A stretch of DNA of 64,000 bases from a virus (Duplodnaviria > Caudoviricetes). The DNA lies in IMG/VR virus record IMGVR_UViG_3300027374_000002, positions 1 through 64,000 of that record, one strand, 5' to 3'. Below the pieces are notes generated by a model that saw nothing but the letters and a program-made list of their open reading frames with translations, was not told where the DNA came from and did not search any database. Position 1 is the first letter of the stretch. The number at the start of each line of letters is the position of its first letter. The translations under genes were made by a program, and so were the position numbers. This document shows, piece after piece, positions 43,500 to 59,940 of this stretch.

Positions 43500-43638
43500 A
43501 CTCGCCATGAGTATGGCAGATTCAATGCTTGCGCAAGGGATTATATCGGAAGCCGAGCATTATAAAATCGACCAGAAAATGTGTGAAAAATATTGTATCA
43601 AAATTACCTCTATTTTCCGAAATTATGCCCGAAAATGA
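43462..43638 (+). CDS. SHOCT-like small protein
   Basis: MLAQGIISEAEH.KID..M.EKY. Confidence 0.7.
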   Translation: MTKEEAERITGYKLAMSMADSMLAQGIISEAEHYKIDQKMCEKYCIKITSIFRNYARK

Positions 43639-43639
43639 G

Positions 43640-43668
43640 TGGATATAAATTCGGTTTAGAGGTAATAT
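43640..43668 (+). promoter_or_regulatory. Repeated promoter, copy 5
   Basis: TGGATA-N10-TTAGAGGTAATAT. Confidence 0.7.
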
Positions 43669-43697
43669 ACGCATGCCAAAAAACAAGGAGGTTTTCT

Positions 43698-44093
43698 ATG
43701 GAAAACAAGCTGGAAAAATTGAAGCAACAACGACCTTTGAGGGTTTGCGCGTATGTTCGCCGCAAGCCCGTTCCTGCGGCTCTGCCGGACATCCAAACCG
43801 AATACTACAACCGGTTAATCAATGGTGTCGATGGTTGGACGAACGCCGGGATTTATACCGACCTGCGGCTGAAAGACAGGGATATGAAGCGAATGCTGAA
43901 AGACTGCAAGAAGCGCAAAATTGACTTGATTATTACAAAGTCGGTTTCCAGGTTTTCGCGCGATGTGAGGAAGTTCGAAAAGATAATGAGCATTTTGAAA
44001 AAATGCGGGGTAGGCGTTTTCTTCGAGCTTGAAAACCTATATTCCCTTGATGCGGAAGCGGCTCTCCGGTTTGATATGCTTTTGGCAGATTGA
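43698..44093 (+). CDS. Resolvase-domain-only protein lacking the catalytic Ser
   Basis: VCAYVRRK in place of YARVS; IDLIITKSVSRFSR. Confidence 0.75.
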   Translation: MENKLEKLKQQRPLRVCAYVRRKPVPAALPDIQTEYYNRLINGVDGWTNAGIYTDLRLKDRDMKRMLKDCKKRKIDLIITKSVSRFSRDVRKFEKIMSILKKCGVGVFFELENLYSLDAEAALRFDMLLAD

Positions 44094-44103
44094 GGAGGGT
44101 GAA

Positions 44104-45420
44104 ATGGAAAGGACGGTACAGTTAGTAAGACCTACGCTTCCGAAGGCAGCGCAAATAAAAAGGGTATGCGCATACGCCAGAGTTTCAAGTGGAAAGGATG
44201 AAATGCTGCATTCGCTTTCGGCGCAGGTCAGTTATTACCAACGCCTCATTCAGTCCCGCGCAGCTTGGAAGTTCTGCGGGGTATATGCGGACGAAGCTGA
44301 AACCGGAACGAAGGACTCCCGTGAGCAGTTTCAGGAAATGCTGGCAGAATGTCGCAAGGGAAACATTGACCTGATCATCACAAAGTCCATCACCAGGTTT
44401 GCGCGAAACACAGTAACGCTTCTGCAGGCGGTTCGAGAACTCAAGGATATGGGCATCGAGATTTACTTCGAAGAGCAGAACATTTTCACGCTCTCAACCG
44501 AAGGCGAAGTGATGCTGACAATTCTCGCATCGTATGCGCAGGAAGAGAGCAGGTCAGCAAGCGAAAATCAGCTCTGGAGGGTAAAGCGGAACTTCGAAGA
44601 AGGCAAGGTCTGGGGGATGCAGATTTACGGTTACAAAGCAGTAGATTGTCAGCTCCAGATTATTCCGGAGGAAGCGGAAGTGGTGAAGCGAATTTTCGCA
44701 GAGTTCCTTGCCGGGAAAGGAAGGGAATCAATTCTGCGCGGCTTGAATCGAGATGGCATCAAACCCAGGCGTGCAGAAAAATGGCAAAGGACATCGGTTT
44801 ATAATATCCTGCGCAACTACGCTTATACCGGCAACCTGATTTTACAGAAAACCTACCGAGAAAATTTTATGACAAAAAAATCGATAGTGAACGATGGTAG
44901 GAAACCAAAGTATCATTGTCAGGAAACGCACGAGCCGATTATTTCAATGGAAACATACCAGCAAGCGCAGGCTGAGATTGAACGCCGAAACGCGAATCTT
45001 CCGAAGAAAGCTCCGTATATGATGTACCTATTTACGAGCCTGATTCGCTGCCCATATTGCGGGGTGAATTACCGCCGGTGCAAAGGTTATAGTTCCTGGC
45101 TTTGGCGCTGTAACACATTTGTGGTTCACGGGAAGCAATCCTGCCCGCAGTCAAAACAGATACGCGAAGATACGATGGTGAGCGTTACCGAAGAGGTGCT
45201 TGGCATCACCGGGTTAAACTACAAGAACATCCACGATGCCATTGATTTTATCGATGCCTTTGAAGGAAACCGGCTGGTGTTTCACTTGAAGAACGGCGAG
45301 GTGGTTGAGCGTGTTTGGAAAGACAGGTCCCGCGCCGAAAGCTGGACACCGGAAATGAAATTGAAAGCGAAGATTAAGGAAGCGGAAAGACAAGAAGAGT
45401 TAAAAAGGAGGGTGCAATAA
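44104..45420 (+). CDS. Large serine recombinase
   Basis: AYARVSS, ITKSITRFARN, recombinase domain, CPYCG zinc ribbon. Confidence 0.93.
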   Translation: MERTVQLVRPTLPKAAQIKRVCAYARVSSGKDEMLHSLSAQVSYYQRLIQSRAAWKFCGVYADEAETGTKDSREQFQEMLAECRKGNIDLIITKSITRFARNTVTLLQAVRELKDMGIEIYFEEQNIFTLSTEGEVMLTILASYAQEESRSASENQLWRVKRNFEEGKVWGMQIYGYKAVDCQLQIIPEEAEVVKRIFAEFLAGKGRESILRGLNRDGIKPRRAEKWQRTSVYNILRNYAYTGNLILQKTYRENFMTKKSIVNDGRKPKYHCQETHEPIISMETYQQAQAEIERRNANLPKKAPYMMYLFTSLIRCPYCGVNYRRCKGYSSWLWRCNTFVVHGKQSCPQSKQIREDTMVSVTEEVLGITGLNYKNIHDAIDFIDAFEGNRLVFHLKNGEVVERVWKDRSRAESWTPEMKLKAKIKEAERQEELKRRVQ

Positions 45421-46994
45421 TGCCGAAGGTTACAGTAATTCCAGCAACAAAGGATTTTTATACCGGCGTTGATAATAACACGTTCAAAAAGAAAAAGGTG
45501 GCTGCATATGCGCGAGTTTCCACCGCAAGTGAAGAACAGGAAACCTCATACGATGCGCAGGTTGATTACTATACGAAGTATATTCAGGGACGACCGGATT
45601 GGGAGTTTGTAAAAGTTTATACGGACAAGGCAATAACCGGTACGAATACCAAGCGTAGGAAAGGGTTCAAAGAAATGATAGACGATGCGCTTGCCGGAAA
45701 GATTGATTTAATTGTTACTAAGTCCATCAGCCGATTTGCACGAAACACGGTTGACACTCTGGTTACGGTCCGAAAGCTGAAAGAGAAAGGCATAGAGGTT
45801 TACTTTGAAAAGGAAAACATCTACACGTTGGATAGCAAGGGCGAGTTGCTCATAACGATTATGAGTTCGCTGGCGCAGGACGAAAGCCGAAGCATAAGTG
45901 ATAACGTAACGTGGGGACAGCGGAAGCGATTTGCGGACGGAAAAGTTAATATGCCTTATAAAAGGTTTCTGGGTTATAAAAAAGGTGAAAACGATCTGCC
46001 GGAAATCGTGCCGGAACAGGCAGAGGTGGTCAGGTTGATTTACTCGCTTTTTCTGGAAGGCAAGACGAGCTACGGCATAGCGAATTACCTGACAGAACAG
46101 CAAATCCCTACCCCGACAGGGAAGGTTATTCCCTGGAAATCAAGCACTATTGAAAGTATTCTACAAAATGAAAAATACAGAGGTTCGGCGCTTCTGCAGA
46201 AGAAATATACGGTGGACTTCCTCGAAAAGAAAATGATAGTCAACGATGGAAAGGTCCCGCAGTATTATGTAGAAGACAGCCACCCGGCAATAATAACGCC
46301 AGCGGAATTTGAAATTGTGCAAGGTGAAATTCAGCGCCGGAAAGCAAACAAAGGGAAATATAGCTGTTGCGCACCTTTTGCTTCAAAGGTTGTGTGCGGC
46401 GATTGTGGCGAGTTCTACGGGCAAAAGGTCTGGCATTCGAATAGTAAATACCGAAAGATAATATACCGCTGTAACGGCAAATATCACGGCGAGAAATGCG
46501 CAACGCCCACCCTCACGGAAGAGCAGTTGAAAGAGGGGTTCCTCAAAGCCATCAACAGCTTGATAGGCATTAAGGAAAGCCTGCTGGAAGATTGCCGGGA
46601 AATGCAGGCGGTGCTATCCGACACTGCAGCATTGGACGAAGAATTGAAAACCGTAACCGATGAGTTTATGGTGGTTCGAGAAATGCTTCGGAAGATGATT
46701 GAAGATAACTCGCGCAAGGTTCAGGACCAGGATGAGTTCTGGGCGAAATACAACCCGCTGGATGAGAGAGCGAAAAAGGCTGATGCGCGAATTAAGGAAT
46801 TGATGGAGCAGCGCACACAGCGCATACAGAAAGCGGAAACAATCGGCGCGTTTATGTTCGAGCTTCACGAGCGCGATGAAGCGGTGGAAGAATTCGATAA
46901 TAAGCTCTGGTTTATGACGGTTGATAAAGTGGTGGTTCAAAGGGACGGAAAGCTGATTTATCATTTCCGCAACGGATTAACGGTTGAAGTGTAG
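45420..46994 (+). CDS. Large serine recombinase
   Basis: AYARVST, KSISRFARN, CGDCG zinc ribbon, coiled coil. Confidence 0.94.
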   Translation: MPKVTVIPATKDFYTGVDNNTFKKKKVAAYARVSTASEEQETSYDAQVDYYTKYIQGRPDWEFVKVYTDKAITGTNTKRRKGFKEMIDDALAGKIDLIVTKSISRFARNTVDTLVTVRKLKEKGIEVYFEKENIYTLDSKGELLITIMSSLAQDESRSISDNVTWGQRKRFADGKVNMPYKRFLGYKKGENDLPEIVPEQAEVVRLIYSLFLEGKTSYGIANYLTEQQIPTPTGKVIPWKSSTIESILQNEKYRGSALLQKKYTVDFLEKKMIVNDGKVPQYYVEDSHPAIITPAEFEIVQGEIQRRKANKGKYSCCAPFASKVVCGDCGEFYGQKVWHSNSKYRKIIYRCNGKYHGEKCATPTLTEEQLKEGFLKAINSLIGIKESLLEDCREMQAVLSDTAALDEELKTVTDEFMVVREMLRKMIEDNSRKVQDQDEFWAKYNPLDERAKKADARIKELMEQRTQRIQKAETIGAFMFELHERDEAVEEFDNKLWFMTVDKVVVQRDGKLIYHFRNGLTVEV

Positions 46995-47065
46995 GGCATA
47001 ACGCTTTACACATCATTTAAAAAATGATATAATTTCACTACCAAACGAAAACAGGGGTAGTAAAA

Positions 47066-47305
47066 TTGGATAGAATGTCCGCAAGATTTGTGGCTAAGAG
47101 ATTTGGATTCAGCACAGATTTAGTTTATCAAATGTGGGAAGAAATGGGCTTGATTATTAAAAACGGTACTAACTCTTGGAAGTTGACCGAGTTGGGCGAG
47201 AAAAACGGGGGCTTGATGTCCTCTGTTGGATATGTACCTACGTTTGAATTTAAGGTCATTGAAAAGCTGATGATGGATTTTTATAACATCGTATTCAAGA
47301 AATAA
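47066..47305 (+). CDS. Small wHTH-like hypothetical protein
   Basis: Promoter TTTACA-17-TATAAT upstream; W.LTELG motif. Confidence 0.6.
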   Translation: MDRMSARFVAKRFGFSTDLVYQMWEEMGLIIKNGTNSWKLTELGEKNGGLMSSVGYVPTFEFKVIEKLMMDFYNIVFKK

Positions 47306-47327
47306 AAGTTTATTTACGGAGCGAAGC

Positions 47328-47990
47328 ATGGGGAAAAAACTTTTATCAAAAATCATTATAGGTATCGCTGCGGTTTGCGTGTTTTCATTCTTCGTTGTTG
47401 GCTGCTCTGCGAGTGATGAAAAATTACTTTCAAATGCGCGGAACCAGGCAGATGCACTATTGAGTGATAAAGGTTATTCCTGCACCGAAATTAGAACTGA
47501 ATTCCTGAACACGCTGACATCAAACGAAAAAGAATACAAAATATATAGTTTAACCATTTATCTGGAAACGGAGGAAACCGGAGACTATGAGTCTATTTGG
47601 GGAGCATTATCGGTTTTAAAGAATTCAAATTATGATATGGACTGCTTCAAAGAGGGCAGAATATCCATTATGGAATATGTGTTTTATGAAGGTGGCACTT
47701 ATAGCATTTCATCGTTGAACAGCTACATGCTTGAAAAGAAAGGTGATTATAAGTTCAAATACGTTACAGAAACCGTTCCGCACCCAGACCTTCCGTATGT
47801 GGGAATGTCAGAAGAACTTATCAGTTTTACAGGACTTGGCGAATATGCATCAAGAGTAAAACATGAAGGTGATAACCAGCATAGGCATTGGGTAACTTAT
47901 ACCTATTATTTCAGTGAAAATGGAAAAACCACTTATATCGTTCAATGTCAGGATGGCAAGGTAACATCTGTTTCCGGAACGAGCAATTAA
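47328..47990 (+). CDS. Lipoprotein
   Basis: Basic N-terminus, hydrophobic core, lipobox VVG-C. Confidence 0.8.
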   Translation: MGKKLLSKIIIGIAAVCVFSFFVVGCSASDEKLLSNARNQADALLSDKGYSCTEIRTEFLNTLTSNEKEYKIYSLTIYLETEETGDYESIWGALSVLKNSNYDMDCFKEGRISIMEYVFYEGGTYSISSLNSYMLEKKGDYKFKYVTETVPHPDLPYVGMSEELISFTGLGEYASRVKHEGDNQHRHWVTYTYYFSENGKTTYIVQCQDGKVTSVSGTSN

Positions 47991-48028
47991 AATTGAGCTG
48001 GTTTCCCGCTGTTTTTGAATTCTACCCA

Positions 48029-48267: not shown

Positions 48268-49338
48268 ATGAAGGATGAACAGTACACCGAGATTGAACAG
48301 CAAATCGGTTACGAGTTCGAGAACAGGTTGTTATTGCAGCAAGCGTTCACCCGGAAAAGCTATACGGAAGAAACGCACGATGGCGATAACAATGAAGTGT
48401 TGGAGTTCATTGGCGATAAGGTTCTGGACCTGATCATCGTCAAGGTTCTGACTGAGTATTACGGTGAAATTAACGAACGCAACGAGTATGAGTGCGAATA
48501 CACAGAAGGCAAGCTCACTGAGTTTAAGAAGCATCTGGTGGAAAGTAAGATGCTGGCTGAGCGCATAGACGAGCTTGGATTCGCGGATTACTTAATTATG
48601 GGGAAAGGGGACAAAAAGAATAATGTCCAGAACGAAACCCATGTGAAAGAGGATTTATTTGAAGCAATTCTCGGCGCTGTTGCCCTTGACAGCGGTTGGG
48701 ATATGGCTGCAATGCAGGACGCGGTGGAAATGATGCTGCACGTTGATTGCTATTTGGATGAAGGGTTCGATGAGGACCAGGACTATGTTTCCATCATCCA
48801 GCGTTGGCAGCAGAAGCGCATCGGGGAATTACCCGATTACAAGTTTACGGACAAGCAGACTTACGACTTAAACCGCATGCTTCGGTGTTACACCTTTGTA
48901 AACCGGCGTGAAAGAATGGAAGCGGGTGAAGGTGATATTGTTTGTGAATTGCGCATTGATGATGGTGAACCGTTTGTTGGTTTCGGGTATTCAAAGAGCC
49001 TGGCAAGAATGGCGGCGGCGGAGCTTGCGTATGATTATTTGGATGAAAACGGTCTTCTGCGCACAATGCAGGATGAGATTGGTGAACCTTCGCGCGAAAG
49101 AGCAGTGAGCCAACTTCACGAGCTGTCCCAGAAGGGATACTTCTCTGCGCCGGTTTATGAGTTCGAAGAGGACCACGATGAAAACGGGAACCCGGTCTGG
49201 ACCTGCGAATGCAGCATCGCCGAATATGAGGACGCATATTTTTACGAGGCAAGTTCGAAGAAGGAAGCGAAACGGCTGGCAGCTTATGAAATGCTTCTCT
49301 CGATTCTAAACCATACAAATGAGGAGGATGACAGATGA
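48268..49338 (+). CDS. rnc: Ribonuclease III with two dsRNA-binding domains
   Basis: NEVLEFIGDKVL signature, EDLFEAILGAV; two dsRBMs ending SKSLARMAAA and SKKEAKRLAA. Confidence 0.92.
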   Translation: MKDEQYTEIEQQIGYEFENRLLLQQAFTRKSYTEETHDGDNNEVLEFIGDKVLDLIIVKVLTEYYGEINERNEYECEYTEGKLTEFKKHLVESKMLAERIDELGFADYLIMGKGDKKNNVQNETHVKEDLFEAILGAVALDSGWDMAAMQDAVEMMLHVDCYLDEGFDEDQDYVSIIQRWQQKRIGELPDYKFTDKQTYDLNRMLRCYTFVNRRERMEAGEGDIVCELRIDDGEPFVGFGYSKSLARMAAAELAYDYLDENGLLRTMQDEIGEPSRERAVSQLHELSQKGYFSAPVYEFEEDHDENGNPVWTCECSIAEYEDAYFYEASSKKEAKRLAAYEMLLSILNHTNEEDDR

Positions 49339-50744
49339 GAGTTGTATCAACAAAGCTGAAAATGGTTGATGCGTTTACGGAAGCGGAGTTTTTCGGAACC
49401 ATAAATCAGTGGATGAAAAATGCCGGTCCTTGCAAGGCGGTGGCTGAACAGCTCGAAGCCTGCGAAGAGAAAGTTGGTGTGCATCTGGAAGCGGAATATT
49501 GTATTGCGGATACTTTCCAAATCGAAAAGGAAGATTCAACGTTCACCCTGTTCAAGTTGGAACAGGAATTCCATCAGCAGACCTGGACGAACGAAGTTAT
49601 TCTTAAAAGTGCCGGCAGTGAGAAGGAGGTGTTCTTCCACATTGATTGCTCCCGCGATGCGACCAGATTTGACGAAGCACCTGAAATGCGCACAGAGGTT
49701 ATTCGCACTTTTGTAAACAGCGGGTATGTAAAGCAACCGAAGGTTCCTATTACTTCCAGGACCGTTGAAGCAACCAATGACCTGCTCGATTGGATAGCGG
49801 CTGCTATTCAGGAAGAATATACTGAGGAATTGCCGTTAATTCTTGCGACTACATATTTTGGAAGCCAGGCAATCGAGATTGATGATTTTGCGCTTTCGAG
49901 GAAGTTGGCAGGACTTGCGTACATTGTGGTGTGCGATAACGAATACACAAGACTTCTGAAGGATAAGGCGAAATGTGCAGTGCCGTTCAATGGCGCGGTT
50001 ACAATTTACTGCAAAGGTGGGAAGCCGCGTCAGTTCCGGAAAAAGGATGCGTTCCTGGGCGCAACGCTTGATAAGCAGATAGCAAATGAAGTGCAAAGGT
50101 TTGTAACCGCAGCGGTTGATGCCGAAGCACCGACTTGGGAAGCACTTCACGCTGAGCTGGTTCATAAGGAAGCGAAAGAAAATGCTGCTCTGGCAGAAGA
50201 AGCGTTCGATGCAAACGAAACGCTGGACGAAAAGCTGAAAAGGGCAGAGGAAAGAATCGCAGCGCTGGTGCAAGAGAACATGCAGTTGACTGCAAAGAAC
50301 GAAAGCCTGAACAGAGCGCTTACGAAAAACGATGCCGTTCAAACGGTATTAGAGGCTTCAAGCATTCCGGAGTTCTTCGAAGGCGAACAGCACGATTTGG
50401 TGGTTTCCATTTTACAGAAAGCGCTGTCGAACTGCGGCACAAAGGATACTCGGCAGAAAGAACTGCTCACCGACCTTTTGGCGCATAACCATATAATCGG
50501 AAAAGGCAAGGAACTGTTCGAAGTGGTTAAGTCTATATTCGCTGATGGTGAAGACCTTTCCGCGAAAGAGCTGGCAGAGCTGAAAAGGGTGGGCTTTGAA
50601 ATCACAAGCGAGAACACGCACTACAAGCTGGTTTATAAGGGAAGCAAATACTGGTTCAGCTTGGCGAAAACCACGAGCGATAAAACCCGCAGCGGGAAGA
50701 ACCTGACTTCGGACATTACGAAAACACTCTCGGTCTATAAATAG
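49335..50744 (+). CDS. Hypothetical protein: N-terminal domains, coiled coil, HicA-like C-terminus
   Basis: ATGA overlap with rnc; LKRVGFEITSENTHYKL..KTTSD..GKN. Confidence 0.7.
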   Translation: MRVVSTKLKMVDAFTEAEFFGTINQWMKNAGPCKAVAEQLEACEEKVGVHLEAEYCIADTFQIEKEDSTFTLFKLEQEFHQQTWTNEVILKSAGSEKEVFFHIDCSRDATRFDEAPEMRTEVIRTFVNSGYVKQPKVPITSRTVEATNDLLDWIAAAIQEEYTEELPLILATTYFGSQAIEIDDFALSRKLAGLAYIVVCDNEYTRLLKDKAKCAVPFNGAVTIYCKGGKPRQFRKKDAFLGATLDKQIANEVQRFVTAAVDAEAPTWEALHAELVHKEAKENAALAEEAFDANETLDEKLKRAEERIAALVQENMQLTAKNESLNRALTKNDAVQTVLEASSIPEFFEGEQHDLVVSILQKALSNCGTKDTRQKELLTDLLAHNHIIGKGKELFEVVKSIFADGEDLSAKELAELKRVGFEITSENTHYKLVYKGSKYWFSLAKTTSDKTRSGKNLTSDITKTLSVYK

Positions 50745-50754
50745 GAGAAAGAAA

Positions 50755-50916
50755 ATGCGTACAACAGCAATCTGCCCGGAATGCGGCGCAGTCCAGAAAG
50801 GGTTAATTTTACAGGAAACAAAAGGCTCGGTTGTCTGCAATAAATGCGGTAAGCAGTTTGAGGCTCCTTTTGAAGAACCCGCAGAAGAACCGGAAAAGAA
50901 AAGCAAGCCGGAATAG
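50755..50916 (+). CDS. 53-aa zinc-ribbon microprotein (not in the ORF track)
   Basis: AGGAGA RBS; MRTTAICPECG..VVCNKCGKQF. Confidence 0.7.
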   Translation: MRTTAICPECGAVQKGLILQETKGSVVCNKCGKQFEAPFEEPAEEPEKKSKPE

Positions 50917-51222: not shown

Positions 51223-51245
51223 TCTATCCGAGAAAACAATCATCC

Positions 51246-51266
51246 CTTAATCGGGGTGGTGGTTTT
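51246..51266 (+). repeat. 21-bp direct repeat (terminator arm), left of gmrSD
   Basis: CTTAATCGGGGTGGTGGTTTT, identical to 53121-53141. Confidence 0.85.
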
Positions 51267-51337: not shown

Positions 51338-53104
51338 GTGAACTCAATGCCCACTAACAATAAATACGAAGATATGAGCGCCCTTGATGCGCTGCGCTTT
51401 GCCGAGAACCATACCTTATTGCTGCCGGATATCCAGAGGGAATATGTATGGGACTATCAGGAAATCGAAAGGCTGTTTGAATCAATAGTGGACGAGTACC
51501 CGATTGGCTCTTGTATTTTCTGGAAAACCAACCGCGCAACCATAAACGCAGAAAAACCGAACCTGTATTATTTTCTGCGTGAGTACGAGCGCTGGAAAAC
51601 GAAGAATGAAAAAGCGCCGGAGGTGTTTAGCAACGAAATTGATTATTACATCGTGCTTGATGGACAGCAGCGTATCACCTCACTGAACATTGCACTTTAT
51701 GGTTCGTATACATATTACAAGGGCGGCAGGGGACACGCTTGGGATAATCCAAAGTCGTGGTTGACAAAAGAGCTTTATTATAACCTTGATTTCTACGCGG
51801 CATCCAATGAAGAAGAGGATGATGAGAACCCCAGGAAGCGCTTTGTTTTTTTAACAAAGGAGGATGCGGAAGCGGGACATTATTACAAAATAAAAAATTT
51901 ACTCGCATTCGATAAATTGCAGCGGTTTGTGCTTGCTTTGAATAATCTGACAACCGATGAAAAGGTAATCGATGACTTGTCAATGCTCTTTGAGCGTCTG
52001 CACAACGCTTCCGGGAATGGGTTGATTCATTACTATTGTATTTCCGAAAATACATACGATGAAGCTCTGGACATCTTTGTGCGCGTAAACTCCACCGGCA
52101 GAAAGCTCTCAAAATCTGACTTACTTTTTTCGACCTTGATAGACGGGTGGAAGACCGGCAAAGAGAATATTGAAAACCTTCTCGCCACGATGAATTCCAA
52201 AGGGGACAAGTTCAATTTCACCAGAGATTACTTGATGCGACTTTGCCTGGTTCTGGTTGATGCTAATACAAACCTGAAAATAAACTCTTTAAATCAAAAG
52301 ACGGTTTTATCGATTCGTGATAATTGGGATGCGATATACGCCGCCGCAGATACCATGTCAACTGTCCTGGCAGACATTGGTCTTTCCAACGAAACCTTGA
52401 CTTCGTATAACGCAACGATGCCCATCGTTTATTTCTTATACAAGGGCGGCAAGATAAAAGATAAAGAAGCGAAAAAGGAAGTGCGTAAATTCCTGTCGGT
52501 TGCTATGGCTCAGCGCCTCTTCGGTGTTGCAAGTAACGATGCTTTGAATAAAACGCGCAACGTGCTGAAAGCGCTTGATTGCAAGAAGGCGGTTTTCGGG
52601 TTATCACTTTTCGCGGAAACCACGCTCACCGGTGGCAGAACATTTACGGTTTCTGAAAAGGACATCGACCATTGGCTGAATACCTACGAAAAAGGGCAAA
52701 GCACATATTTGCTTTTGGCGCTGCTTTACCCGAATTACAAGTTGAGCCAGGTTGCGTTCCATCAGGACCATTGTCACCCACACGTATCTTTTGATGATAA
52801 AAATATAATTGCACTGGGGCTGACCGAAGAAAAAGTGAAGGAGTGGCAGAAGAAGCGTAATCTCCTTCCGAACCTTCAATTTTTGGAAGGTACAGAAAAC
52901 GAGTCAAAGAATAAAACACCGCTTTATGAATGGGTGAACGCAGGGTATAACTTTTTGTATCGTCCCGCGGGCGTTTCACTTGAACTGAAAGATTTTGATG
53001 TGTTCTTTAATGAAAGAAGGAAGCTGATTAAAAAAGAACTCGCATCGATATTCGGCGTTACGCTTCCGGAAGAAAACCCGGACAGCAATACTGAAGAAGC
53101 ATAA
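51338..53104 (+). CDS. gmrSD: GmrSD-family modification-dependent restriction protein (DUF262 + HNH/DUF1524-like)
   Basis: LPDIQREYVW, LDGQQRITS, IFVRVNSTG; DHCHP..NL..N.SK. Confidence 0.88.
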   Translation: MNSMPTNNKYEDMSALDALRFAENHTLLLPDIQREYVWDYQEIERLFESIVDEYPIGSCIFWKTNRATINAEKPNLYYFLREYERWKTKNEKAPEVFSNEIDYYIVLDGQQRITSLNIALYGSYTYYKGGRGHAWDNPKSWLTKELYYNLDFYAASNEEEDDENPRKRFVFLTKEDAEAGHYYKIKNLLAFDKLQRFVLALNNLTTDEKVIDDLSMLFERLHNASGNGLIHYYCISENTYDEALDIFVRVNSTGRKLSKSDLLFSTLIDGWKTGKENIENLLATMNSKGDKFNFTRDYLMRLCLVLVDANTNLKINSLNQKTVLSIRDNWDAIYAAADTMSTVLADIGLSNETLTSYNATMPIVYFLYKGGKIKDKEAKKEVRKFLSVAMAQRLFGVASNDALNKTRNVLKALDCKKAVFGLSLFAETTLTGGRTFTVSEKDIDHWLNTYEKGQSTYLLLALLYPNYKLSQVAFHQDHCHPHVSFDDKNIIALGLTEEKVKEWQKKRNLLPNLQFLEGTENESKNKTPLYEWVNAGYNFLYRPAGVSLELKDFDVFFNERRKLIKKELASIFGVTLPEENPDSNTEEA

Positions 53105-53120
53105 ATAAAAACCATCACCT

Positions 53121-53141
53121 CTTAATCGGGGTGGTGGTTTT
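53121..53141 (+). repeat. 21-bp direct repeat (terminator arm), right of gmrSD
   Basis: CTTAATCGGGGTGGTGGTTTT. Confidence 0.85.
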
Positions 53142-53284: not shown

Positions 53285-54244
53285 TTATTCCTCGTCATCG
53301 TTTCCGGTTTCTTCTTCGCCATCTTCCGATGATACCTCGTTGAGGTTTTCGTCAAGCGTGAGTTCTTCTACCTGACCGCCGTTCTGGAAAAGCGCATCGT
53401 CATTTACTTCGTAGAACTCATCGTCATCGCCAATATTATCAAGCCCGGAGTAGTCCTTTGCGAAGAGCGCGTTCAACTGAAGTTTGGCTGCGTTGGATTT
53501 TTTCTTTCCGTTATATTCCAGAACCATTACTTCGGCGTAGCCCATGCAACCTGCCCGGCGTTCCTTCGCGGTGCGGGTGAGCTGCTTAATGGAAATAGCG
53601 CCGAGCTTTTCTTTGAACAGGTCATCGTCCAGCGCTTCTTTATAGACCACGACCAGCTTTGCAACGGCTTTCATAATGTTTGCGCTGAAGGAATTATAGT
53701 CTCCTTCCCAAGCGCCGATAATAAGCCGTAACACGCGGTCTAAGGCGTGGTATCCATGTTTGTCGAAGATGTACTCAAGCGTGGAAACTGCGCAAATCGC
53801 GCCCGGTTTTTTGGAAGAACCGATTATCATTCCATAGGATTCAACCAGGTCTCGTATCATTAATTGTTTGTCATTTCCGGCTTCGATATTTGCCATAAAG
53901 ATTTCGTAAGGAATGAGCGGCTTGACGAACTTCATCTGGTTTGCGAAGATGTCCGCTTCATGCGAATAGTCAAGGTCATCGTAAACCATACACCAGACCG
54001 GCGTTTCGCGGGAACCGGAAACGAGCGCCACGATTTCAATGGTGTGCTGCCCGTTGAATACATAATTGATTCCATTGCGGCGGCTGACTTTTACAGGGTT
54101 TATTTGGTAAAGGTCGAAGTTTTCTGCCGCGCGGTTGATATGAGAGCGGGAGAGGTTGCGTTGATACTCCTGGTTGGATACCAAGTTTTTTATGGGTATT
54201 TGCTCAAAATGTACGTTGGGTACGAAAGCAGAGAAATCGGGCAT
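53285..54244 (-). CDS. ParB/Srx-like protein (DUF6551-like)
   Basis: EYQRNLS, VKVSRR..YVFNGQHT; acidic tail. Confidence 0.75.
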   Translation of the reverse strand: MPDFSAFVPNVHFEQIPIKNLVSNQEYQRNLSRSHINRAAENFDLYQINPVKVSRRNGINYVFNGQHTIEIVALVSGSRETPVWCMVYDDLDYSHEADIFANQMKFVKPLIPYEIFMANIEAGNDKQLMIRDLVESYGMIIGSSKKPGAICAVSTLEYIFDKHGYHALDRVLRLIIGAWEGDYNSFSANIMKAVAKLVVVYKEALDDDLFKEKLGAISIKQLTRTAKERRAGCMGYAEVMVLEYNGKKKSNAAKLQLNALFAKDYSGLDNIGDDDEFYEVNDDALFQNGGQVEELTLDENLNEVSSEDGEEETGNDDEE

Positions 54245-54246
54245 TT

Positions 54247-55179
54247 TTAGACCTCCTCAATTAAAAACAGCAATTCGGTTACTGCGGAAGCAAGCTCGTC
54301 AAGTATGGTTTGTACTTTTATGAGTGCCGGCTTGGAAACGGTGCTGAAATTTGTGTTTTGTTTGGTGCGTTGTATTGAATCAAGCCACGATGGGATGGTG
54401 AGCGTTAAGCTGTTGATGGCTGCATCAGGATCGAAGGTTGGCATATCTTTTACGGATGATTGTGCGCCGGAAGCGGAAGGAGTGTAATTGCTTTGAATAA
54501 CGGCTCTGCTTTTTTTGAATTTCAGGATTACCTGGTTTCGGGAATTGCCGAGCCGCTTGTTTAATTTTTGAAGCTCTTCCGGAGACATCCTTTCAACTTC
54601 CAAGATGCTATTGTGCGATATTTTATAACGCCCGGATAGTATCTTGGGTACAAGCTCTGGGGCTTTCCTGCCGATTTCCAAAATGGCGCGGGTGTAGCGG
54701 GCATACTTCTGTATGGTGCCGAAGGATACGTTGTTTTCTTTTGCAAGCCGCTGCGCAGTAACGTGGCGGCAGGGGAGTATTTCGCTTTCCGGTAAAAAAT
54801 CATCTTCCTCCTGTGGGTTCAAAAGGTCATCGCGTTTATTTGAGTTGATGAGCTTTTCCGTTTCATACTGCATTCCGATGAGGAAGTGGCGTGCTTCTTC
54901 GGTTATGTTGTCGCGCTTGCATTGTGTTGCACAAATCCATACAACGGCAGCTTCCTTGCAATCGAACGGCATTTCTTCAACTGAAAAGGGAATATGATAT
55001 CGGGTACAAATATCGTAACGGCAATGACCGTCAATGATGAACCCGCGCCAGACTTTTATGGGTTCCAGACAGCCGTTATTGAGAATGCTGGTTTCGAGTT
55101 CCAGGAATTCCTTTTGCGGATGTGGGCGAATGAGAGACTTAAACTCTCTGCATATTTCGAGCGTATGGTTAGTTTCCAT
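54247..55179 (-). CDS. ParB-like N-terminal domain protein
   Basis: LE.SILNNGCLEPI.VW..IIDGHCRY; HTH-like AQRLAKENNVS.GTIQ. Confidence 0.75.
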   Translation of the reverse strand: METNHTLEICREFKSLIRPHPQKEFLELETSILNNGCLEPIKVWRGFIIDGHCRYDICTRYHIPFSVEEMPFDCKEAAVVWICATQCKRDNITEEARHFLIGMQYETEKLINSNKRDDLLNPQEEDDFLPESEILPCRHVTAQRLAKENNVSFGTIQKYARYTRAILEIGRKAPELVPKILSGRYKISHNSILEVERMSPEELQKLNKRLGNSRNQVILKFKKSRAVIQSNYTPSASGAQSSVKDMPTFDPDAAINSLTLTIPSWLDSIQRTKQNTNFSTVSKPALIKVQTILDELASAVTELLFLIEEV

Positions 55180-55570
55180 TAGGAACCTCCGGCTCGATGC
55201 GTTTTATTGTTTTTAATGAAAAAACTGCCGCTGCTTTAGATGAAATAACTTCACCCGAAAGACGGTAGGAGTAGTTAGTTTCCAGACCGCCGATAACTTC
55301 GCAAAGACGGGTGATAAAAGAGCGGCTGTAAATTTCATAGGAATTATCGGAATTCATCAGGCTCATATTAACCTTGTGCGACTGGTCTCCTGACAGCTCT
55401 TTTTCTACTGGGCGAATAGCGACAGCCATCATTGATGGGTTGACCAGAAGTTGAATATACTTCGGATCGCCCAGAAGGTGAATGGTTTGCTTGTGGATGC
55501 GTATTCTGTATTTTTTCAGGTCAATAGCAATTGTGGTGGGTGTAGAAGTGGGACTACTCATGTGAGCCAC
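55169..55570 (-). CDS. Hypothetical protein, paralog of the recombinase C-terminal domain
   Basis: RIRIHK..LLGDPKYIQLLVNP..AIRP..YRLSGE. Confidence 0.75.
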   Translation of the reverse strand: MAHMSSPTSTPTTIAIDLKKYRIRIHKQTIHLLGDPKYIQLLVNPSMMAVAIRPVEKELSGDQSHKVNMSLMNSDNSYEIYSRSFITRLCEVIGGLETNYSYRLSGEVISSKAAAVFSLKTIKRIEPEVPNGN

Positions 55571-56324
55571 CTCCGGCTGTTATGCCAACGGAAAGAGAGG
55601 GCTGGTCCTGACCACCCGTGGGTGTTTCTTCCGGCTTCAGTTGAGCATCCTCTTTAATTGTATAAATTGCGTAACCGTCAAAGATATTGATTTGCATCGA
55701 CTGCTTATGTTCGTTATAAGGCAAGCCGAATTGATTCTGCCAATCTTGCGGAAATACCGGTGTTCTGGAAACTTTCGGTTTTGCGCCGTCGGGGAAAGTC
55801 TTCTGGTAAACTTCGGCAGCGGTAAGGTCATACGCAATCAAGTATTCGCCGTTCGAGTGGATGAGCTTGCCAAGAAGTTTGTACCTGAAATCCGGGTTCC
55901 ATCCCATAAGCTCAACAATTTTTGCGAAGAACAGCTTGCAAGTTATTGGCTTGGGTTTGCGTTTTCCTTTTCCAGGTTCAGTACACCACATAAAGGAATC
56001 GCGGGAACCTTCGTTGCAAGGGCGAAGGGCGAGTATCTTTCTTTCGCGGTTAACGAGTACCTGCGCGTACCCGGAGTTGGGGAACTTGGAAAGGCAGGCG
56101 GCATTGACATAGAATTTACAGTTGTTAAAGGAAACGGAAGGCTCGTGCATATGCGCGAAGAATTCACGCCTTACAACCTGGAAATCGTCAAAGTTAAAGT
56201 CCTCGCTCAGTTCCAGCAGTTCGTCATTCTCGCCAAGAACAGGGGGAACATTTCCATCTGGTATAGGAACGCCGTTCGGGGTAGGCTGCTCAAGGTCAGT
56301 GGTGTTTTCTTCATTTTCAATCAT
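55554..56324 (-). CDS. Hypothetical protein, paralog of the recombinase C-terminal domain
   Basis: FQVVRREFF, LVNRERKILALRP, GWNPDFRYKLLG, PQDWQNQFGLPY. Confidence 0.8.
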   Translation of the reverse strand: MIENEENTTDLEQPTPNGVPIPDGNVPPVLGENDELLELSEDFNFDDFQVVRREFFAHMHEPSVSFNNCKFYVNAACLSKFPNSGYAQVLVNRERKILALRPCNEGSRDSFMWCTEPGKGKRKPKPITCKLFFAKIVELMGWNPDFRYKLLGKLIHSNGEYLIAYDLTAAEVYQKTFPDGAKPKVSRTPVFPQDWQNQFGLPYNEHKQSMQINIFDGYAIYTIKEDAQLKPEETPTGGQDQPSLSVGITAGGGSHE

Positions 56325-58227
56325 TAGGTATTACCTCCTGTGGCGTTATGCCAGTTAATTCTTGATTTATGTACGTTTGCAATTCCTCAAAGCCTGTCAC
56401 TCGGATTTGCTTTCCGGTTTCAAATAATTGACCTTCCATTCGTATTTTCCAATCCGACTCGCTTTGATTTGCAAGCGCGGAGAGAGTCTGCTCGTGTAAA
56501 TAGTACGGCTTACCGAAACTATCGGTCCACGCTTGCGGTATTGCACGGATGCGGTTGCGCGAGGGGGTATAAGGTTGGACTGTACCTTTGCCGCCAGCTT
56601 CGGTTGCTTCCTGGCTTGTTAAAACATAGGACTTGAAGAACGCTTCCGAATTGGTGGTATCAAAGATGTACGCGATTTCATTATCCTTTTCATATAGTGA
56701 ACCGATGATGCGGTAACGGCAATCGGCGTTCCATCCGAAAAGCGAGAAGAGGGTGTCGTTGAAAGCGGCGGTTGATATCGGGCGAGAGTAGTATACCTTC
56801 TCTGATATCTTCGAGCAGATGACAGCCTGACGGTTTGATTTGTCAGTTGTGCGAATGGCGAATTTCTTTTCTATCGGATTAATCAATAGTTCGATGTAAT
56901 TTCTTTCGCCCAGCTTCCGGATGCACTCGGTGCTTAACTTGAGCTTTTTCTCTGCAAAGGTAATAGAGGGGCGGCGGACACTATCGAAGAATTCAGTGCG
57001 TGTTATTTCAAACCCGCGCATGTCAAAGTCTCCGGCTTCAACAGGTATCTTTATTTCCTGCGGGACTTGGGGTTCTGCGGGTTGCTCATTTTCCGGAGTG
57101 GTGTAAACGCTGTTCGCAGCTTCGAAATAGTCTATTTCCTTGAAGCCTGCCCAGCGGGGGTTGATAACAACAAAACCCTTTAATATGCCGCTGTCAATTA
57201 CGCGAAGTTCCGGAAGGAAGGATTTATTCCTGTATTTGGCATTATCCAGCATGCGCTGAACCGCAATGAAATCATCTCTTGATACAATGGCTTCATGGTG
57301 CTTGTGGTATCTGCTTTGGGGACGGTCTCCGCGATTTTTTACAGACTTATGATCGCGGTAATTTGGCGTGAATGTTTTTCGGGTAAGAACATCGCCGCAG
57401 TGTCGCTCGTTGCGTAGGATTTGAACTACACCGCTTGAAGTCCACTTGTTTGTGTTTCCGAGATATGACTTTCTGCCGAGCGCGTTCAAAGTGTCCGCTA
57501 TCTGCTGCGTTGAGTAACCATAAAGATACATATAAAATGTGAGCTTTACGGTGGGTGCTTCTTCTGGATTGATGATTAAATTCCCATCTTCATCGTGCGT
57601 ATAACCGAGCAGCTTCGGAGTAAGGGGAATGCCATGGTCCAAGCGCATACGCAGAGAGGTTTCCATACTGCGGCTGCGGGTGTGTGATTCTTCCTCTGCC
57701 ATAGTTGCTTGGAAGGACAGCGCCATTTGCGAATCGTCATTCAAAGAGAAGATGCATTCCGATTCAAAGAAAACTCCGACAGGGGGTTTCAATTCAGCAA
57801 GGTCGCGCGTAAGTCCGATGCAGTCAACCACGTTTCTGGCAAAACGCGAAACGCTTTTTGTAATGATAAGGTCAGCTTCGCCGGCTTTGCAGTCGGCAAT
57901 CATCTGGTTGAAATTATCGCGGTGTAGGCGGGAGGTTCCGCTTATGCCTTCGTCTGCGTAAATTTTGATAAGAGTCCAGTGGGGGTGCTTCTGTACGAAT
58001 TCTTCATAGTATTGTCTTTGAAGCTCGAAGGAAGTGGTCTGCCGGACATCGTCTGTCGAAACGCGGACATAAATAACCACCCGCATAGGCGTATCGTTGT
58101 CATAATAGTCGACTCTTTTCCGCGCGGGTGTGAATTCGTAGTTCTCTTCATCAATTTCAAAGCGCATACGCTTTCGCGTTTTGGCTTTCTCGCGTTCCTT
58201 GGAAACGCGGCGTTCTTCATCAATCAT
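56317..58227 (-). CDS. Large serine recombinase with a novel C-terminal domain
   Basis: IYVRVST, KSVSRFARN, LLGY; no zinc ribbon or coiled coil. Confidence 0.92.
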   Translation of the reverse strand: MIDEERRVSKEREKAKTRKRMRFEIDEENYEFTPARKRVDYYDNDTPMRVVIYVRVSTDDVRQTTSFELQRQYYEEFVQKHPHWTLIKIYADEGISGTSRLHRDNFNQMIADCKAGEADLIITKSVSRFARNVVDCIGLTRDLAELKPPVGVFFESECIFSLNDDSQMALSFQATMAEEESHTRSRSMETSLRMRLDHGIPLTPKLLGYTHDEDGNLIINPEEAPTVKLTFYMYLYGYSTQQIADTLNALGRKSYLGNTNKWTSSGVVQILRNERHCGDVLTRKTFTPNYRDHKSVKNRGDRPQSRYHKHHEAIVSRDDFIAVQRMLDNAKYRNKSFLPELRVIDSGILKGFVVINPRWAGFKEIDYFEAANSVYTTPENEQPAEPQVPQEIKIPVEAGDFDMRGFEITRTEFFDSVRRPSITFAEKKLKLSTECIRKLGERNYIELLINPIEKKFAIRTTDKSNRQAVICSKISEKVYYSRPISTAAFNDTLFSLFGWNADCRYRIIGSLYEKDNEIAYIFDTTNSEAFFKSYVLTSQEATEAGGKGTVQPYTPSRNRIRAIPQAWTDSFGKPYYLHEQTLSALANQSESDWKIRMEGQLFETGKQIRVTGFEELQTYINQELTGITPQEVIPND

Positions 58228-58843
58228 CGGAAGTTCCTTTTTCGGTTATATTTTCTGGGGTAGTATCTTCGGGCAGAACTTTCCAATCCGGTGAGGGAAG
58301 GAAGAAGGTGTCTTTCAGGTCATTCTGGTAATAAGAAGCCAGGGTGAAAATATCCTCCGAAATAAAATAAATCCCGATAGGAGGTGTGTGCGCTGCAAGC
58401 AGTCTGGCGCATAATGTAACCTCGTGCATTTTCTTAGAAACGTTCGAGACCTTCTGGGTTATAATTAAATCGATCTTGCCTTCCATTGCATCGTTTAATA
58501 AACGACTCCATTCGGAAGCGGATTCCATGTTGGGGGCGGTTGCGCCTTCGTCAATATAGAAATCAATGAGCGTCCAATTCGGGCAGAGGTTGATTGTGTC
58601 TTTGAACTGTTGCTTATGAAATGCGAGGTAATCCTCGTACCGGGTTTGATTAAAATACCTAATATAAACGCCAACCTTGAATGGCGTTGCGGGGTTCGGG
58701 AATTCGTGGCGAATACTGTGGAACCAATTTTTATGGTCAGCAACCTTCTGTGCGTGTTCGGAGTTGGTGCCGAAAATTGAAAGCTGCTGGGGCGCGTTTG
58801 CTATTTCCTGAAACTTATTTATAATGTCTATTTCGTTGGGCAT
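58220..58843 (-). CDS. Resolvase-domain-only protein lacking the catalytic Ser
   Basis: VGVYIRYFN in place of YxRVS; FYIDEG, GKIDLIITQKVS; GAGGA RBS before the ATG at 58843. Confidence 0.75.
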   Translation of the reverse strand: MPNEIDIINKFQEIANAPQQLSIFGTNSEHAQKVADHKNWFHSIRHEFPNPATPFKVGVYIRYFNQTRYEDYLAFHKQQFKDTINLCPNWTLIDFYIDEGATAPNMESASEWSRLLNDAMEGKIDLIITQKVSNVSKKMHEVTLCARLLAAHTPPIGIYFISEDIFTLASYYQNDLKDTFFLPSPDWKVLPEDTTPENITEKGTSDD

Positions 58844-58997
58844 AAAAATCCTCAAGGCATAATTATGTGACAATTATAGAGTCCCGCGCCGGAAAAAGGA
58901 ATAAACCAGCGGTCAAGTAAATAACCACTGGTTTATGAAAAAGGCATCTTTTTTGAAATTAATAAAAAAAGAGTGGAGCTGTCTCCACTCTTTCTTG

Positions 58998-59357
58998 TTA
59001 GTCTTCTTTGTTTGTACGCATTGAGGTTTTGATTTCCTGAATGATTTTCAGGAGCGATTCAAGTTCCGCGGCGGTGCAGTCTTTGAAGATTTTTTCGAAC
59101 TCACCTTGATAAATCGAATTGACGGTAGGAACGTTCGGACGAAGGATCTCATCAGCCGACACTCGGATTACCTCGATGATTTTGCAAAAGGTGAGAATGC
59201 TCAGTTGCTTCTTGCCGCATTCAATATCGGAAAGGTGGGAAGCATTGAGGTTCGCAGAATAGGCAACATCCGCTTGCGTTAGCCCCGCGGCTTGCCTTGC
59301 TTCTCGGAGGCGATTTCCGATTTTTTTTAGTTTTTTTGATTCGATATTCTCTTCCAC
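58998..59357 (-). CDS. XRE-family HTH regulator
   Basis: IGNRLREARQAAGLTQADVA..LSDIECG. Confidence 0.9.
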   Translation of the reverse strand: MEENIESKKLKKIGNRLREARQAAGLTQADVAYSANLNASHLSDIECGKKQLSILTFCKIIEVIRVSADEILRPNVPTVNSIYQGEFEKIFKDCTAAELESLLKIIQEIKTSMRTNKED

Positions 59358-59370
59358 GGTTGCACCTCCT

Positions 59371-59454
59371 TCGGCTATAGCTTATATTTTGACCTAATTT
59401 TATCATCTATAGCCGAAATTCAAAATCAGCTATGGACGAGAATATCGGCTATGG
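59371..59454. promoter_or_regulatory. Four TC(G/A)GCTAT(A/G)G boxes between the divergent XRE genes
   Basis: 59371 (+), 59407 (inverted), 59426 (+), 59445 (+). Confidence 0.65.
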
Positions 59455-59494
59455 CATATAATTGAGTGGACTTTTTTTGGAGGAAAAACGAAAG

Positions 59495-59857
59495 ATGGCA
59501 CTCAATTACATTTTACTTGGCAAGCGTGTGAGGGACCTTCGCGTTAAGCGTAAGATGTCCCAGGCAGAACTCTCAGAGCTTATTGAAAAGTCCCCGCCTT
59601 ATGTCAGCTACATAGAGAGCGGAATTAAAAGCCCCAGCCTGGACACGCTCATTTTGCTTGCGAATGCTCTGGGCGTTACTGCTGATATGCTTTTGGCAGA
59701 GAGCCTGGATAACCACCTGATGGTGGATGTGGGGGAATACGCTGAATTGCTCAATGACTGCTCCCCATATGAGCGGAGGGTTTTGATTGAAAATGCGCGG
59801 GCGCTGAAAAAGACGATGCGTGAATACCACTTTTTGTCAAAGCGCAAGAACCGGTAA
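59495..59857 (+). CDS. XRE-family HTH regulator
   Basis: LGKRVRDLR..MSQAELSE..YIESG..PSLDTL; GGAGG RBS. Confidence 0.9.
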   Translation: MALNYILLGKRVRDLRVKRKMSQAELSELIEKSPPYVSYIESGIKSPSLDTLILLANALGVTADMLLAESLDNHLMVDVGEYAELLNDCSPYERRVLIENARALKKTMREYHFLSKRKNR

Positions 59858-59879: not shown

Positions 59880-59940
59880 GAGCGGCGCAATAGACCGACA
59901 GTTATGAAAATGACTGCCGGTTAAAGCGCTGCCTTTTTTA
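59880..59940 (+). terminator. Long imperfect hairpin plus T-run
   Basis: GCGGCGC..GACCG.CAGTTA/TGACTG.CGGTT..GCGCTGC then CTTTTTT. Confidence 0.55.

Follow-up and report, generated by a model that had tools for sequence, protein, structure and literature searches.

A conserved six-gene lysogeny cassette of Heliusvirales-type Clostridia prophages: a possible composite serine-recombinase machine

Introduction

Large serine recombinases serve as genome-engineering tools, and their choice of site and the direction of the reaction are set by a zinc ribbon and a coiled coil. What, then, might be the task of a large serine recombinase that carries an unrelated domain in that place and is encoded together with five accessory proteins? 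This question is raised by a cassette of six tightly packed minus-strand genes, designated g0 to g5, in a 64-kb stretch of viral DNA (hereafter, the window) that makes up the first part of the 84-kb IMG/VR virus record IMGVR_UViG_3300027374_000002. The phage is temperate and of the siphovirus type, the cassette is located in its lysogeny region, and backbone genes for a DUF2800 nuclease, PolA, a D5-type primase, an SNF2 helicase, an S-adenosylmethionine (SAM) synthetase, a ParB-methylase, the terminase, and tail and lysis proteins were identified. By DNA similarity, its relatives are the Candidatus Heliusvirales gut phages of Lachnospiraceae and Oscillospirales, and Heliusvirales-type prophages, in turn, belong to the most widespread phages of the gut (PMC11283538). 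A published description of the cassette was not found in the literature searched, a search with the accession PV036443 also gave nothing, and the Heliusvirales paper leaves integrase, recombinase, ParB and lysogeny unmentioned. In this current study, we describe the six proteins, their conservation and two palindromic DNA sites beside them, and we tentatively propose, with slightly less than even confidence, that the cassette is a composite serine-recombinase machine and a conserved six-gene lysogeny module of Heliusvirales-type Clostridia prophages.

The cassette recombinase and its X domain

Searches against Pfam revealed that g1 contains a Resolvase domain (E 1.9e-23) and a Recombinase domain (PF07508, E 4.9e-22, residues 221-328), and g1 also matched PHROG 95, annotated as an integrase (E 5e-83). 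When g1 was aligned with active paralogues, its catalytic Ser and Arg residues were found to be intact. Moreover, among 67 orthologues of g1, the catalytic Y-x-RVS motif is kept in 65 and the KSVSRFAR-type motif in 58. Judged from these residues, g1 looks like an active, working serine recombinase and the sole catalytic subunit of the cassette. The initial annotation of the window had claimed that the zinc ribbon and coiled coil typical of serine integrases are replaced in this protein. For the zinc ribbon this claim was borne out, as g1 gave no match to Zn_ribbon_recom (PF13408), which is matched by both neighbouring large recombinases, and a CxxC motif after residue 330 was found in none of the 67 orthologues. 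The architecture of g1 comprises a catalytic domain, a recombinase domain, a linker and, at approximately residues 400-600, a further domain, here called the X domain, which by sequence appears to stand in place of the zinc ribbon and where the coiled coil would be. With the large serine recombinases phiC31, Bxb1, A118-LI, SPbeta SprA, CcrA/B and TnpX, g1 thus shares the same catalytic Ser/Arg residues, the alpha-E region and the Pfam Recombinase domain, but it differs from them in having neither a zinc ribbon nor Cys motifs; in their stead is an unrelated domain of about 200 amino acids (aa) that is also encoded twice in free form. A further difference is the constant presence of a dead catalytic paralogue and two ParB-like proteins beside g1.

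The free forms of the X domain are g2 and g3. In BLASTP comparisons, residues 400-601 of g1 aligned with residues 42-229 of g2 (27% identity, E 2e-27), and g3 aligned with g1 (E 4e-6) and with g2 (E 1e-5). Family alignments, drawn from database matches and 80 genome loci, were then compared in pairs by hhalign. The g1 C-terminus matched g2 at a probability of 100% (E 5.6e-42), g3 matched g2 at 98.1% (E 8e-14), and g3 matched the g1 C-terminus at 97.6% (E 4e-12). A resemblance of the g1 C-terminus to the next gene, and a looser one to the gene after that, had initially been seen by eye, and both withstood these comparisons, in which all three pairs were significant. On these alignments, the X domain is assigned as triplicated, being present as the C-terminal ~200 residues of g1, in g2 and, as a more distant copy, in g3. 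The family is large: homologues of g2 amounted to more than 1600 matches among 90% clusters, and to 1311 clusters at 50% identity. The X domain also multiplies inside a single protein, since chains of 300-410 aa with two or three tandem copies were observed (P0150, P0199, P0209 and P0256).

The fold of the X domain was less readily assigned. Neither g2, g3 nor any of 73 g2 homologues matched Pfam; NCBIfam gave catalytic-domain matches only for the cassette; the PDB was unmatched both by the g2 sequence and by an X-domain profile; and the ESM Atlas held no usable match for g3. The structure model of g2, a protein with acidic disordered ends, reached a predicted local distance difference test score (pLDDT) of 57, with about 75 in the core. 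The model of g3 reached a pLDDT of 87.5 and a predicted template modelling (TM) score of 0.79, and follows the order strand-strand-helix-strand-strand, then strand-helix-strand-helix-strand-strand; a sequence repeat between the two halves of g3 was not detectable. The closest structural neighbours of the X domain were the DNA-binding barrels MraZ and B3, at scores under the level for accepting a shared fold. When the g2 and g3 models were compared with the PDB by Foldseek, nothing was found at E <= 0.001, and rows for clamps and PCNA had TM scores of about 0.2. A search of BFVD returned uncharacterised phage proteins only, at TM scores of 0.5-0.6, the best being Gp105 of Lactococcus phage KSY1 (0.60). 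The initial annotation had suggested a swapped-hairpin, AbrB-like DNA-binding domain. Searches by sequence and profile failed to sustain this assignment: besides the Pfam and PDB profile negatives, hhalign of the X domain against a 20-sequence MraZ alignment gave a probability below 1%. The swapped-hairpin barrels of MraZ, AbrB and MazE and the plant B3 pseudobarrels are all cradle-loop barrels, and the structural matches point to this single metafold, at scores too low for claiming a fold shared with the X domain; an AbrB/MraZ-like swapped-hairpin fold is therefore no more than the leading candidate. The isoelectric point of 9.3 calculated for both g3 and the core of g2 would fit DNA binding. 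Prediction of a complex of the g1 C-terminus, the g2 core and g3 provided evidence neither way, as a control scored higher.

The dead paralogue and the ParB-like proteins

The first gene of the cassette, g0, encodes a protein with a weak match to Pfam Resolvase (E 7e-4) and no C-terminal helix-turn-helix (HTH). Alignment with the active paralogues showed that the nucleophilic Ser has been changed to Phe, and that SRFARN has become SNVSKK, by which both active-site Arg residues are gone. Across 31 orthologues of g0 both changes show little or no variation: the sequences YIRYFNQT and SNVSKK are retained, and the position of the Ser is occupied by Phe or Tyr. Read from these alignments, g0 is a conserved, catalytically dead paralogue consisting of the catalytic domain only, in agreement with the dead resolvase that had been claimed for the operon.

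The last two genes had both been regarded as ParB-like, a view that held well for g5 and more weakly for g4. Pfam DUF6551 (PF20188) was matched by g5 at E 1e-31, and PHROG 1033 at E 2e-14; the protein has an NGQHT motif, of which GQHT is invariant in 33 orthologues, and an acidic tail. DUF6551 is handled as a ParB-CTPase-fold family, and in vitro binding of CTP or ATP was observed for other phage members of the family (bioRxiv 10.1101/2025.10.10.680097). By family membership, g5 is assigned the ParB-CTPase fold. The match of g4 to PHROG 4715, a ParB-like partition protein, was weak (E 1.2e-4); its neighbours in the ESM Atlas carry ParB_N (score 0.96-0.97), and Pfam ParB_N was unmatched in all 34 g4 orthologues at E values up to 0.1. 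Profile similarity between g4 and g5 was not found by hhalign, and PDB profile searches with g4 and g5 gave chance matches only. Probably, g4 has a divergent ParB/sulfiredoxin-fold N-terminal domain and a helical C-terminal part.

A conserved transcription unit

As shown in Table 1, the cassette lies next to a divergent pair of cI-like and cro-like genes. Adjacent cassette genes overlap by 8-17 nucleotides (nt) or sit 2 nt apart, and the overlaps suggest translational coupling. In agreement with the initial annotation, g0 starts with the ATG at 58843; the list of open reading frames (ORFs) has it begin with a TTG at 58873, which falls within a -10 box. Because the cI-like gene is followed by a terminator and g0 is preceded by its own TATAAT box, g0 to g5 form a transcription unit separate from cI. 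This promoter has no good -35 element, and site A (described below) abuts the position where one would lie. A 77-aa ORF after g5 is not conserved.

Table 1. Positions of the cassette genes, candidate DNA sites and neighbouring features in the window
Feature	Coordinates	Strand	Description and basis
g0	58220..58843	-	catalytic-domain-only pseudo-recombinase (predicted); Pfam Resolvase and paralogue alignment
g1	56317..58227	-	large serine recombinase, 636 aa; Pfam Resolvase and Recombinase
g2	55554..56324	-	free-standing X-domain protein, 256 aa; BLASTP and hhalign
g3	55169..55570	-	minimal X-domain protein, 133 aa, pI 9.3
g4	54247..55179	-	310 aa, IIDGHxRY motif; probably divergent ParB/sulfiredoxin-fold N-terminal domain
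g5	53285..54244	-	DUF6551 (predicted ParB-CTPase fold); Pfam PF20188
-10 box (TATAAT) of the g0-g5 operon	58873..58878	-	read from sequence; conserved spacing to site A
Site A	58901..58936		candidate DNA target; 36-bp near-perfect palindrome, 16-bp arms, 4-bp spacer, between cI terminator and g0 promoter
Intrinsic terminator 3' of the cI-like gene	58965..58996	-	GC-rich
cI-like XRE repressor gene	58998..59357	-	Pfam HTH_3 and HTH_31; same orientation as cassette
cro-like XRE gene	59462..59857	+	Pfam HTH_3 (E 5e-17); divergent from cI
Site B	59890..59924		candidate DNA target; less perfect palindrome with same half-site consensus, just past cro-like gene
Companion cluster	43593..46994	+	converges on cassette; dead resolvase (166 aa) and zinc-ribbon large serine recombinases (463 and 524 aa); Pfam and alignment

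The tight, overlapping operon described in the initial annotation proved to be widely conserved. In about 80 Clostridia genome loci, the order of a divergent cro, then cI, then g0 to g5 in the direction of cI is kept wherever the contig is long enough, and the order of the genes is unbroken in essentially every complete locus of the 80. When individual positions were counted, cI was found upstream of g0 in 55 of 62 loci, and cro was divergent in 60 of 62. Christensenellaceae, Oscillospiraceae and Lachnospiraceae are among the hosts, as are isolates such as Intestinimonas, Flintibacter and Anaerotignum. Among phage records, a g2 homologue was present in 18, comprising 16 Heliusvirales and two unclassified fragments. 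In these terms the cassette is a hallmark of the Heliusvirales-type lysogeny region.

Two palindromes bracketing cI and cro

On either side of the cI-cro pair, we found the palindromes listed as sites A and B in Table 1, which are new in this analysis and share the half-site consensus TAAACC-N4-GTCAA. A palindrome of about 36 bp follows directly after the cI terminator in every locus. When a model of site A was used in nhmmer searches, site A was detected in almost all loci, and a second site, 0.5-3 kb away, was detected in at least 26 distinct loci. By the same searches, the 64-kb window contains only these two sites, and the 20-kb loci contain almost no others. In some genomes the outer motif is altered jointly in A and B, to TCGACC in one locus (L079) and to ACAACC in another (L052). 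Moreover, the inner right motif of site A and a -10-like hexamer are separated by exactly 33 nt in 46 of 52 loci. Based on sequence and position, these two palindromes are the most likely DNA targets of the cassette.

Another motif, distinct from sites A and B, occurs in four copies (CATAGCCGA / TCGGCTATAG) within the cI-cro intergenic region (59358-59461); these copies are presumably the cI/Cro operators.

How the cassette may work

The homologies, the states of the active sites, the synteny, and the sites with their fixed spacing are observations; which proteins bind the sites, that they act in one complex, and what strand exchange, if any, follows are inferred. In the composite machine that we propose, g1 would be the enzyme, and its basic, beta-rich X domain would serve as its outer DNA-reading part in place of the zinc ribbon and coiled coil by which att sites are read. 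The free X-domain proteins g2 and g3 may occupy or share the same DNA motif, may compete for it, or may pair with the copy fused to g1, and could in this way set when and where g1 acts. The dead paralogue g0 could cap or pair with g1 subunits in a non-catalytic role, and g4 and g5 would be ParB-fold, probably nucleoside triphosphate (NTP)-binding, organisers of DNA. The machine would work at palindromes A and B, and site A, by its position, could in addition serve autoregulation of the operon promoter. In its most specific form, the proposal describes a new type of multi-subunit recombinase in which the X domains are interchangeable DNA readers and the pseudo-recombinase and ParB-fold NTP switches gate assembly on the two palindromes; in that full form we consider it unlikely. 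If it were true, recombination, or looping mediated by a recombinase, would be coupled directly to the decision between lysis and lysogeny in highly prevalent phages of the human and animal gut.

In its logic, the closest analogy to the proposed machine is phage Mu, in which a DNA-binding domain is common to the repressor and the MuA transposase, and the two compete at the operator/enhancer. As in Mu, a recombinase and small proteins of the same phage here carry paralogous, putative DNA-binding domains, and the candidate sites are located at the immunity region. The likeness is an analogy only, as the enzyme here is of the serine type, unlike the DDE enzyme of Mu. A natural swap of the zinc-ribbon part, together with free extra copies of the new domain, a dead paralogue and ParB-fold partners, could reveal a new control of serine recombination, for which the two conserved palindromes offer a concrete DNA substrate.

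Four observations weigh against the composite machine. First, the central 4 nt of A and B differ from each other in every locus, which makes an exchange between A and B unlikely. Second, site A also scores as a terminator-like hairpin. Third, A and B are tied to no particular protein of the cassette, and an unrelated regulator could just as well use them as operators. Fourth, contigs from four mouse-gut DNA runs, in which rare forms would be hidden, show no joint at the cassette ends or at sites A and B. In all, the stretch is present in twenty mouse-gut DNA runs, as contigs only, and in no listed RNA run; run X1 has the whole 20 kb in one contig and may be the source. Apart from a cargo difference in run X3 (described below), the only joint, from 53911 to 55443 and with a side of 32 nt, was seen in run X13 and probably derives from a related phage.

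Alternative roles of the cassette

Among other explanations, the one that survives best is that the cassette is a genuine integration and excision module, in which g1 acts on attP and attB, g0, g2 and g3 serve as directionality factors, and the ParB-like proteins handle the excised circle, a task that has been proposed for the Dsi module of Dehalococcoides as well. The intact active site of g1 and the location of the cassette in the lysogeny region, beside cI, speak in favour of it, as does the similar composition of the Dsi integration module of Dehalococcoides. The Dsi (ssrA-island) module (DsiB/DsiA plus a ParB-domain protein), which is experimentally uncharacterised, consists of six co-directional genes, among them those for a large recombinase, a catalytic-only recombinase of about 200 aa just upstream of it, and a ParB-domain protein (PMC3146451). 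By composition it is the closest described system, since a large recombinase, a small catalytic-only one and a ParB protein in one operon are also what g0 to g5 provide; the accessory genes are likened by description. The two systems differ in that DsiB is CcrB-like over its full length and overlaps attL, and that RecF-like and Mom-like genes occur in the Dsi module, from which X-domain proteins are absent (PMC3146451).

What speaks against integration as the role of the cassette is, above all, its company. In most loci the cassette is adjoined by two ordinary zinc-ribbon large serine recombinases. By count, g5 is faced in 33 of 51 loci by one to three such recombinases, which converge on it from no more than 7 kb and often from only 10-180 bp away. 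The Streptococcus prophage Phi1207.3 has the same backbone (SNF2 helicase, SAM synthetase, ParB-methylase, terminase and lysis genes), followed by two overlapping serine recombinase genes, orf56 and orf57, and this tandem pair, at the right prophage end, is the proposed integrase (PMC4260502). The pair resembles the companion recombinases of the window (Table 1) and not the cassette, and the 18 phage records in which a g2 homologue is present do not include Phi1207.3. A pair without a g2 homologue suggests, by analogy, that the ordinary pair integrates the phage and that the cassette does something in addition to plain integration. Moreover, no conserved sites other than A and B were found, and as prophages carry both of them intact, they are not an attP consumed by integration. 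When the proteins of the window were mapped onto two complete chromosomes, the prophage ends and att sites were not located. Weighing both sides, we regard it as unlikely that integration and excision are the task of the cassette.

A second alternative is a regulatory or silencing nucleoprotein complex, in which the X-domain and ParB-fold proteins would bind A and B, coat the immunity region of about 1 kb or draw it into a loop, and modulate the cassette and early promoters. On plasmid RK2, KorB together with KorA does something similar. The fixed distance of site A from a -10 box that has no good -35 element would suit such a complex, as would the bracketing of cI-cro by A and B, the presence of ParB-fold proteins, and the resemblance of the basic X domains to transcription-factor barrels. 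What it would leave unexplained is the preservation of the g1 catalytic residues in 65 of 67 orthologues, which argues for selection on strand exchange. A purely regulatory complex is therefore quite unlikely in our estimate.

The cassette has also been considered as a module for multimer resolution or stability in an episomal phase, with g1 resolving dimers through A x A recombination in the manner of res/TnpR or RK2 par, and with the ParB-like proteins helping partition. A single near-perfect palindrome directly upstream of the recombinase operon does recall the position of res relative to tnpR, and ParB-fold proteins are at hand. No ParA-like gene is found in or beside the operon, though, and the loci sit inside chromosomes of 2.4-3.3 Mb; in view of these two facts, the segregation role that had been put forward for the operon is not supported either. 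As packaging is by terminase, monomeric circles are not needed either. Resolution of multimers is thus improbable.

Hardly more credit can be given to the view that A and B are mere hairpins by which the transcripts of cI and cro are terminated or insulated, unrelated to the cassette proteins. Site A was indeed called terminator-like, with 15 pairs and then a T-rich tail, and site B lies at the end of cro, before a run of T. A canonical GC-rich terminator, however, is already present after cI. When pairing was scored, 84% of the positions in site A were paired, compared with 69% in site B, where the half-site consensus is nevertheless kept. The mismatches in site A (38 G-T versus 24 A-C) show only a slight G-U excess, too weak for an RNA stem, and the spacing to the -10 box is fixed. 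The retention of the consensus at 69% pairing, the joint change of the outer motif and the fixed 33-nt spacing all argue, at the level of sequence, that A and B are protein-binding DNA sites rather than RNA hairpins.

Finally, an invertible immunity switch, in which g1 flips the ~1-kb cI-cro segment between A and B, is very improbable: related sites do flank the segment about 1 kb apart, and in the window their arms are asymmetric (GTTAT versus GTCAA) and in inverted orientation, but serine recombinases need matching central dinucleotides whereas the central 4 nt differ in every locus examined, the orientation of cI/cro is the same in 60 of 62 loci, and no inversion joints were seen in the contigs from the four runs.

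Neighbouring recombinases and cargo genes

In the companion cluster of the window, the 166-aa dead resolvase has its nucleophilic Ser replaced (AYVRRKP) and retains SRFSRD. The end of its gene overlaps the gene for the 463-aa recombinase, which in turn overlaps the gene for the 524-aa recombinase by one base.

In the window and in two complete chromosomes (G002 and G003), one flank of the cassette is formed by cI/cro and the opposite flank by cargo and recombinase genes. What the window shares with these chromosomes is mainly the recombinase pair, the cassette and cI/cro; apart from these, only one or two isolated ORFs match, joined in G002 by two early genes. Shared in this way without the remainder of the phage, the block, cargo included, behaves as a portable lysogeny supermodule.

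Between the companion cluster and the cassette, the window holds cargo of the defence type. Two hairpin-forming direct repeats of 34 nt (51233-51266 and 53108-53141), 91% alike, bracket a GmrSD (DUF262) gene at 51338-53104, which looks like a cassette bounded by terminator-type repeats. At 48268-50916, an RNase III gene with a double-stranded RNA-binding domain is coupled to a gene for a 469-aa protein, and a 53-aa zinc-ribbon ORF follows; the 469-aa protein matched the PADLOC candidate defence family HEC-07 (E 6e-8). In the Oscillospiraceae chromosome G002 (locus L126, 5032-6875), the slot is filled by genes for an AAA_21 ATPase and an RloB-like protein, which replace GmrSD and RNase III. Moreover, in a 19.5-kb contig from mouse-gut run X3, 1049 nt at 46976-48026 are swapped for 2031 others, while the flanking recombinase gene and the cassette are kept; the cargo carried between recombinases and cassette therefore varies.

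For g0 to g5 themselves, PADLOC gave no defence-system matches. Rfam gave no match above threshold. A BLAST comparison of the 84-kb record with itself revealed no long repeats, and two 871-aa ORFs at its ends are unrelated to each other. At the low-GC left end of the record (769-4841), beside phage replication genes, a Hachiman-type defence pair (HamA and a helicase), which may be either host flank or phage cargo, was observed.

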